From Escherichia coli (GTDB taxonomy: Bacteria > Pseudomonadota > Gammaproteobacteria > Enterobacterales > Enterobacteriaceae), in assembly GCF_003334815.1 (NCBI RefSeq), contig NZ_QOWO01000015.1: a stretch of 64,000 bases of DNA; one strand, 5' to 3'. The translations under genes were made by a program, and so were the position numbers. Positions 62,152-62,445 of this stretch are shown one piece after another. Below the pieces are notes generated by a model. That model was not told the origin of the DNA, did not search any database, and worked only from the letters and a program-made list of their open reading frames with translations. Each line of letters opens with the position of its first letter. The stretch's first letter is position 1.

Positions 62152-62325
62152 ATGAGTTTTTTTAAAGCTCGTAATTAATGGCTAAAACGAGTAAAGTTCA
62201 CCGCCGAAAATTGGGCGGTGAATAACCACGTTTGAAATATTGTGACATATGTTTTGTCAAAATGTGCAACTTCTCCAATGATCTGAAGTTGAAACGTGAT
62301 AGCCGTCAAACAAATTGGCACTGAA

Positions 62326-62350
62326 TTATTTTACTCTGTGTAATAAATAA
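62326..62350 (+). promoter_or_regulatory. Mlc (DgsA) operator in the ptsG promoter region
   Basis: AT-rich near-palindrome ttattttactctgtgtaataaataa, about 95 bp upstream of the ptsG ATG. Confidence 0.6.
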
Positions 62351-62445
62351 AGGGCGCTTAGATGCCCTGTACACGGCGAGGCTCTCCCCCCTTGCCACGC
62401 GTGAGAACGTAAAAAAAGCACCCATACTCAGGAGCACTCTCAATT

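Follow-up and report, generated by a model that had tools for sequence, protein, structure and literature searches.

The DNA between ycfH and ptsG, at positions 62152-62445 of the window (the whole 64-kb stretch analysed here), is the native control region of the Escherichia coli ptsG gene. It is read here as the ptsG promoter and leader, and the AT-rich palindrome flagged within it by the initial annotation is read as the promoter-proximal Mlc operator, with a probability of roughly 95%. The operator was correctly identified from the raw sequence alone. All of this is textbook knowledge: the promoter of ptsG, with its Mlc operators, its dependence on CRP and its SgrS target, belongs to the best-studied regulatory elements of E. 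coli. The discovery value is small outside two residual leads, a C-rich leader loop and a phasing of two operators that is conserved. The comparative picture from about 78 genomes is that of a rigid CRP-operator-promoter module with a fixed operator-operator distance, and of a variable leader that tolerates repeat-element insertions upstream of an invariant SgrS site.

The interval is 294 bp long and is read on the plus strand: in the list of open reading frames, ycfH ends at 62151 and the ATG of ptsG begins at 62446. The sequence from 62100 to 62500 is 100% identical to E. coli K-12 MG1655 (window position x equals NC_000913.3 position x + 1,095,423), and the segment 62052-62545 was matched in 5425 of 5426 complete E. 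coli genomes, annotated as ycfH and ptsG. It is because of the identity to MG1655 and the ycfH and ptsG annotation that the interval is assigned as the native ptsG control region. The downstream gene had been named ptsG, and this is correct: the open reading frame at 62446-63879 (plus strand) and its RefSeq annotation give the 477-amino-acid glucose-specific PTS enzyme EIICB.

Operators of the NagC/Mlc type are described in the literature as quasi-palindromes in which only the TT and AA at ±5 and ±6 are invariant. For Mlc, the description comprises TT and AA separated by 9 bp, an AT-rich region at ±7 to ±11 and, at ±11 itself, A or T, where high-affinity NagC sites carry C or G. The 25-mer quoted by the initial annotation, ttattttactctgtgtaataaataa, is found at exactly 62326-62350. 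Only one register of this 25-mer fits the TT-9 bp-AA rule, with TT at 62331-62332 (-6/-5) and AA at 62342-62343 (+5/+6). The ten arm positions from ±7 to ±11 are all A/T (TTATT and TAAAT), and both ±11 positions, 62326 and 62348, are T and 100% conserved in 20 distinct orthologous variants. The primary footprinting papers on the ptsG Mlc operator are reportedly those of Plumbridge (1998), Kimata et al. (1998) and El Qaidi and Plumbridge (2008). Not the 25-mer but the unstranded 23-mer TTATTTTACTCTGTGTAATAAAT at 62326-62348, centred at 62337, is the true operator; it shows every sequence feature published for Mlc operators. The proposed "Mlc/NagC-family operator" is borne out in its Mlc half: the site is of Mlc type and not of NagC type.

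Published binding data point to the same DNA. The oligonucleotide TTGGCA..AATTATTTTACTCTGTGTAATAAATAAAGGGCG, used in gel shifts and labelled there as the "Mlc-binding site" from the "ptsG operator promoter region", corresponds to window positions 62315-62356 and contains the 25-mer. A ptsG-lacZ fusion is the standard Mlc target in work on operator specificity, and a Salmonella ptsG fragment, said to hold the "known Mlc-binding site", served as the positive control for Mlc binding. A ChIP-qPCR study of MG1655 on glucose found no significant enrichment of Mlc or Fis at the ptsG promoter; for Mlc, such a negative in vivo result is expected if the repressor is sequestered during growth on glucose.

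Written as W5-TT-N9-AA-W5, the operator rule was scanned on both strands of the window. It has two matches in the 64 kb, both between ycfH and ptsG: the proximal operator and a second site, TTTTTTTAAAGCTCGTAATTAAT, at 62157-62179 (unstranded, centre 62168), which the initial annotation had overlooked. Among 20000 dinucleotide-preserving shuffles of the 294-bp region, 1.7% contain at least one match and 0.25% at least two, figures that slightly favour the sites, as "AT-rich" was fixed as "all W" after both ptsG sites had been seen to satisfy it. Applied to the MG1655 promoter regions of ptsH, manX, malT and mlc, this rule picks out a single site in each whose ten arm positions are all A/T. The second, distal site of ptsG agrees, like the proximal one, with all the literature criteria for Mlc operators. 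It begins 6 nt past the ycfH stop codon, and its centre is 175 bp upstream of the P1 transcription start; rule match, matrix rank and a conservation island all point to it.

Just downstream of the distal operator, a GC-rich hairpin (TTCACCGCCGAA/TTGGGCGGTGAA, 62197-62222, plus strand) follows ycfH, detected as a 12-nt inverted repeat with 92% complementarity. Its stem (CACCGCC/GGCGGTG) is kept in the orthologues with GC/CG and AT/TA exchanges. T-runs follow the hairpin in many genera; in E. coli only the weak T-tail AATAACCACGTTTG is present. This hairpin looks like the ycfH terminator, which would place the distal operator between the ycfH stop codon and that putative terminator. A simple terminator scan of the plus strand did not call the hairpin, and the only two calls of the scan were minus-strand artefacts inside the leader. 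A minor upstream ptsG promoter, P2, presumably starts near the same hairpin.

Conservation was followed in a scan of one genome per species, which gave 80 loci with PtsG relatives of 82-100% identity, from Enterobacterales and one Aeromonas; 78 of them were usable. The proximal operator is present in 76 of the 78. No Mlc-type operator was found upstream of ptsG in the other two, Serratia symbiotica (L071), a reduced symbiont genome, and the second ptsG copy of Rouxiella aceris (L073), a paralogue. The proximal operator occurs in 20 distinct variants, all of which agree at positions -11 to -4 (TTATTTTA) and at +5, +6, +9 and +11. An alignment of 69 sequences, from which conservation islands were drawn, shows the left half-site and the GTAA of the proximal operator to be at least 95% conserved. 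Footprint-like islands coincide with the distal operator, the hairpin 62197-62222, the segment 62292-62313 and the proximal operator; within the leader, further islands cover its first hairpin (62351-62368) and the part between about 62409 and the ATG, while 62225-62290 is poorly conserved in the same alignment.

The distal operator was detected in 67 of the 78 loci; in 64 of these 67, the centres of the two operators lie 166-170 bp apart, most often 168 bp, or about 16 helical turns of 10.5 bp. No description of this fixed spacing was found in the literature searched, the primary ptsG promoter papers lying outside it, and it is a mildly new side observation. It raises the possibility that the two operators are mainly one unit, with Mlc bound at both and looping the ~168 bp of DNA between them; this would extend the explanation given above and not replace it. 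The spacing is kept in spite of the poor conservation of much of the intervening DNA, and it stays fixed while the distance from the operator to the ATG varies among the orthologues (95-136 bp, reaching 232 bp). In cited work, looping between two operators is given as established for the paralogue NagC. However, the intervening DNA also holds the conserved hairpin and the CRP-type site, which themselves constrain its length, a distal site was not detected in nine orthologues that have the proximal one, and the spacing could reflect the geometry of a second promoter (the upstream P2). Looping is possible, with the odds somewhat against it.

The initial annotation proposed a matrix scan as a check and took a lack of significant Mlc matches as its refutation; the scan decides this only weakly. 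A ptsG-independent Mlc matrix was built from four sites, the ptsH, manX, malT and mlc operators. Of 63978 positions, the distal operator ranks 1st or 2nd and the proximal one 2nd to 18th, the ranks varying with the register set for the ambiguous ptsH and manX sites. Taken singly, the sites score 10-18 bits, in the range that block-shuffled sequence reaches at its best. By itself, the Mlc matrix evidence is supportive, not decisive. A further segment, ATATTTTTCAGGCCGAAAATCAT at 28560-28582, scores as high with this matrix as the ptsG operators; it lies inside the grxB coding sequence and is probably a chance match.

Instead of Mlc, the palindrome could serve its paralogue NagC, the regulator of N-acetylglucosamine genes. 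The NagC and Mlc logos are said to be essentially the same except at ±11, and either protein, when overproduced, can repress the targets of the other. A NagC matrix of 10 published sites also puts its best match to the palindrome 2nd in the window, in a register shifted by 1 nt and with a score no better than that of shuffled sequence. The register that keeps TT and AA, on the contrary, scores only -0.15 with this matrix and ranks 546, a poor score that agrees with reports that NagC does not control ptsG. The NagC matrix was rejected as a test for Mlc sites, as it missed the true register and did no better than shuffles. The T at both ±11 positions is the Mlc signature, and according to the literature, the two proteins do not cross-regulate at their physiological levels, and ptsG is repressed by NagC only after changes in the NagC linker. 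An operator for NagC in place of Mlc is very improbable.

Equally improbable is a palindrome that arose by chance from an AT-rich core promoter and is devoid of operator function: AT-richness is expected at a -10 element and start site, the symmetry is modest (14 of 25 positions self-complementary, with an inverted repeat TTATTT/AAATAA of about 6 bp and one C/G pair), the inverted-repeat finder did not report a palindrome this short, and the scores of both matrices lie near the shuffle maxima, but TTA 62326-62328 and GTAA..AA..T 62340-62348, outside the -10 element, are at least 95% conserved across Enterobacterales, a second site of like design stands at a fixed distance, far from P1, and the published probe and regulation data speak against it. 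The symmetry of the palindrome alone is within chance for AT-rich DNA; its fit to the published description of Mlc operators is beyond chance.

The Mlc operator overlaps the start of the P1 promoter. The ptsG RNA template of a published in vitro study has its first position at -103 relative to the start codon; this and the published residue numbering put the P1 start at 62343 (plus strand), with a leader of 103 nt. The residues G76, A78, A82 and G89 fit only +1 = 62343, and the reported range C92-C95 is off by one with this start. The centre of the proximal operator is 6 bp upstream of the start (-6). From its position, 7 nt upstream of the start, the hexamer TTTACT (62330-62335, plus strand), inside the operator, is the probable -10 element; it matches TATAAT at four of six positions. 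A sigma-70 consensus scan did not call P1 and found no -35 match. Its single hit, at 62254-62282, is at chance level.

Upstream of the operator, and overlooked by the initial annotation, a CRP-type site, AAACGTGATAGCCGTCAAACAA, covers 62292-62313 (unstranded), with its core at 62295-62310 and its centre at 62302.5 (-40.5). The evidence for it is conservation and spacing. Its half-sites are at least 95% conserved in the 69-sequence alignment and its spacer 40-80%, and the distance from GTGA-N6-TCA to the Mlc operator centre downstream is exactly 34.5 bp in 74 of 76 loci. The core, CGTGATAGCCGTCAAA, has two mismatches to TGTGA-N6-TCACA; as evidence by itself, this match was rejected, the window holding 20 such matches against 27 expected by chance. 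Activation of ptsG by CRP-cAMP is stated in the literature. Further upstream, the segment TGTGACATATGTTTTG at 62241-62256 contains a perfect CRP left half-site (TGTGA, 62241-62245) with no right half-site. It was rejected as a CRP site, lacking the second half and lying in a stretch that is not conserved in Enterobacterales. A second upstream CRP site and Fis sites have reportedly been described around this position, as have sites for ArcA and SoxS in the ptsG control region.

The leader folds into two hairpins. The first, AGGGCGCUUAGAUGCCCU, at 62351-62368 (plus strand; mRNA +9 to +26), appears in the minimum-free-energy fold and in the RNAalifold consensus. Each of its five pairs shows compensatory changes, 95% of the alignment cells being paired, and it may be a 5' stabiliser. 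The second, at 62375-62396 (plus strand; mRNA +33 to +54), is likewise present in the minimum-free-energy fold, and its seven pairs all have compensatory changes, with 77% of cells paired. Over the whole leader, 12 of 12 pairs are compensatory and none of 500 shuffles reaches the observed covariation score. The second hairpin carries the C-rich loop CUCUCCCC, whose core CTCCC is at least 90% conserved in 69 sequences while the stem changes freely, and the CUCC of the loop is complementary to GGAG within ptsG's Shine-Dalgarno element. No account of this loop was found in the literature searched, which left the primary ptsG promoter papers outside, and the hairpin with its conserved loop is a mildly new side observation. 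The loop and the operator spacing might be accounted for by a CUCCC loop that pairs with the Shine-Dalgarno sequence or docks an RNA or protein, and by a phased Mlc DNA loop; we consider this pair of explanations rather doubtful.

The leader is 80-125 nt longer at six loci, L002 and L003 (Citrobacter werkmanii / C. youngae), L014, L017, L026 and L044. In the Citrobacter loci, the excess (~1330-1460) is a dispersed, ERIC-like intergenic repeat of ~125 bp, of which an E. coli genome carries a median of 10 copies. It sits between the second, C-rich leader hairpin and an intact SgrS site.

The start region had also been named as the target of the small RNA SgrS, and the predicted duplex agrees with this. 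MG1655 sgrS nt 157-190 was scanned against the leader plus 60 nt. The best duplex joins mRNA nt 75-96 to SgrS nt 167-188 in runs of 5, 8 and 4 bp, which reproduces the published 5-8-4 pairing pattern and lies on the SgrS base-pairing region, given as about nt 168-187. The pairing region is at 62417-62438 (plus strand), with its core at 62424-62431, and covers the Shine-Dalgarno AGGAG at 62430-62434. The published footprints are A82-G89 on ptsG and G168-U181 on SgrS, and A82-G89 maps to 62424-62431. In the alignments of 69 sequences, the target, ACTCAGGAG, shows conservation of at least 95%. The energy of the duplex is not distinctive: with the SgrS fragment, 0.5% of all 40-nt windows across the 64 kb give pairing that is as good or better. 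Folding of the full-length duplex, leader against SgrS, was rejected, giving energies no better than those of shuffles. In Salmonella, the small RNA AdiZ also uses the SgrS site on ptsG mRNA. A permissive Rfam scan of 61000-64000 found no RNA family in the ptsG control region.

The regulation of the locus may be summarised as follows. A dimer of Mlc, a repressor of the ROK family, would bind the 23-bp quasi-palindrome at 62326-62348; binding of Mlc to the ptsG operator sequence is taken from published papers. Since this site extends over both the +1 of P1 and its probable -10 element, bound Mlc should exclude RNA polymerase. We infer this steric exclusion, the exact -10 hexamer and any cooperation between the two operators. 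During glucose transport, dephosphorylated PtsG (EIICB-Glc) would sequester Mlc at the membrane and so release the promoter; sequestration of Mlc by unphosphorylated EIICB-Glc, the ptsG product, is described in the literature. P1 would be activated by cAMP-CRP at the site centred at -40.5. The 103-nt transcript leader would then present the two hairpins and, at the Shine-Dalgarno region, the SgrS pairing site, through which SgrS is expected to block ptsG translation and trigger decay under sugar-phosphate stress.

Elsewhere in the window, three tandem RtT-like units with a period of 181 nt, on the minus strand (1597-2095 and 2143-2227), adjoin a tRNA gene; each is just above the Rfam threshold, with 46.3 bits against 45. 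Other matches at the Rfam gathering threshold are the rne 5' UTR element (48968-49304), the small RNA SraB (51166-51334), the PyrC leader (27184-27233) and the small RNAs ES056 (7827-7918) and ES036 (18013-18055). All five belong to what this section of the E. coli chromosome is expected to carry.

Among known systems, the P1 promoter is like class II CRP-dependent promoters in having GTGA-N6-TCA about 40.5 bp upstream of the start and no recognisable -35 hexamer, and its candidate CRP site departs from the consensus core at two of 10 positions. The E. coli Mlc operators of ptsH P0, manX, malT and mlc share the design of the ptsG operator: TT-N9-AA, arms of A/T only and A/T at ±11. Their centres are mostly C/G-rich (CGCG-like), whereas the proximal ptsG site has A/T at ±4 and the centre TCTGTG, which explains its lower matrix score. 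NagC and Mlc are paralogous repressors of the ROK family, and the NagC operators (nagE-nagB, chbB, glmU, fimB, galP and others) are likewise 23-bp quasi-palindromes with TT/AA at ±5,6 and AT-rich arms. High-affinity NagC sites, on the contrary, have C/G at ±11 and usually C..G at ±4, where the ptsG site has T/T and A..T. The interaction of SgrS with ptsG mRNA does not differ from the known one, the predicted duplex coinciding with the published footprint and genetics. Finally, the proximal operator is the same DNA as the Mlc operator of the E. coli K-12 ptsG P1 promoter: it is 100% identical to MG1655 1157749-1157771, with no difference between the two.
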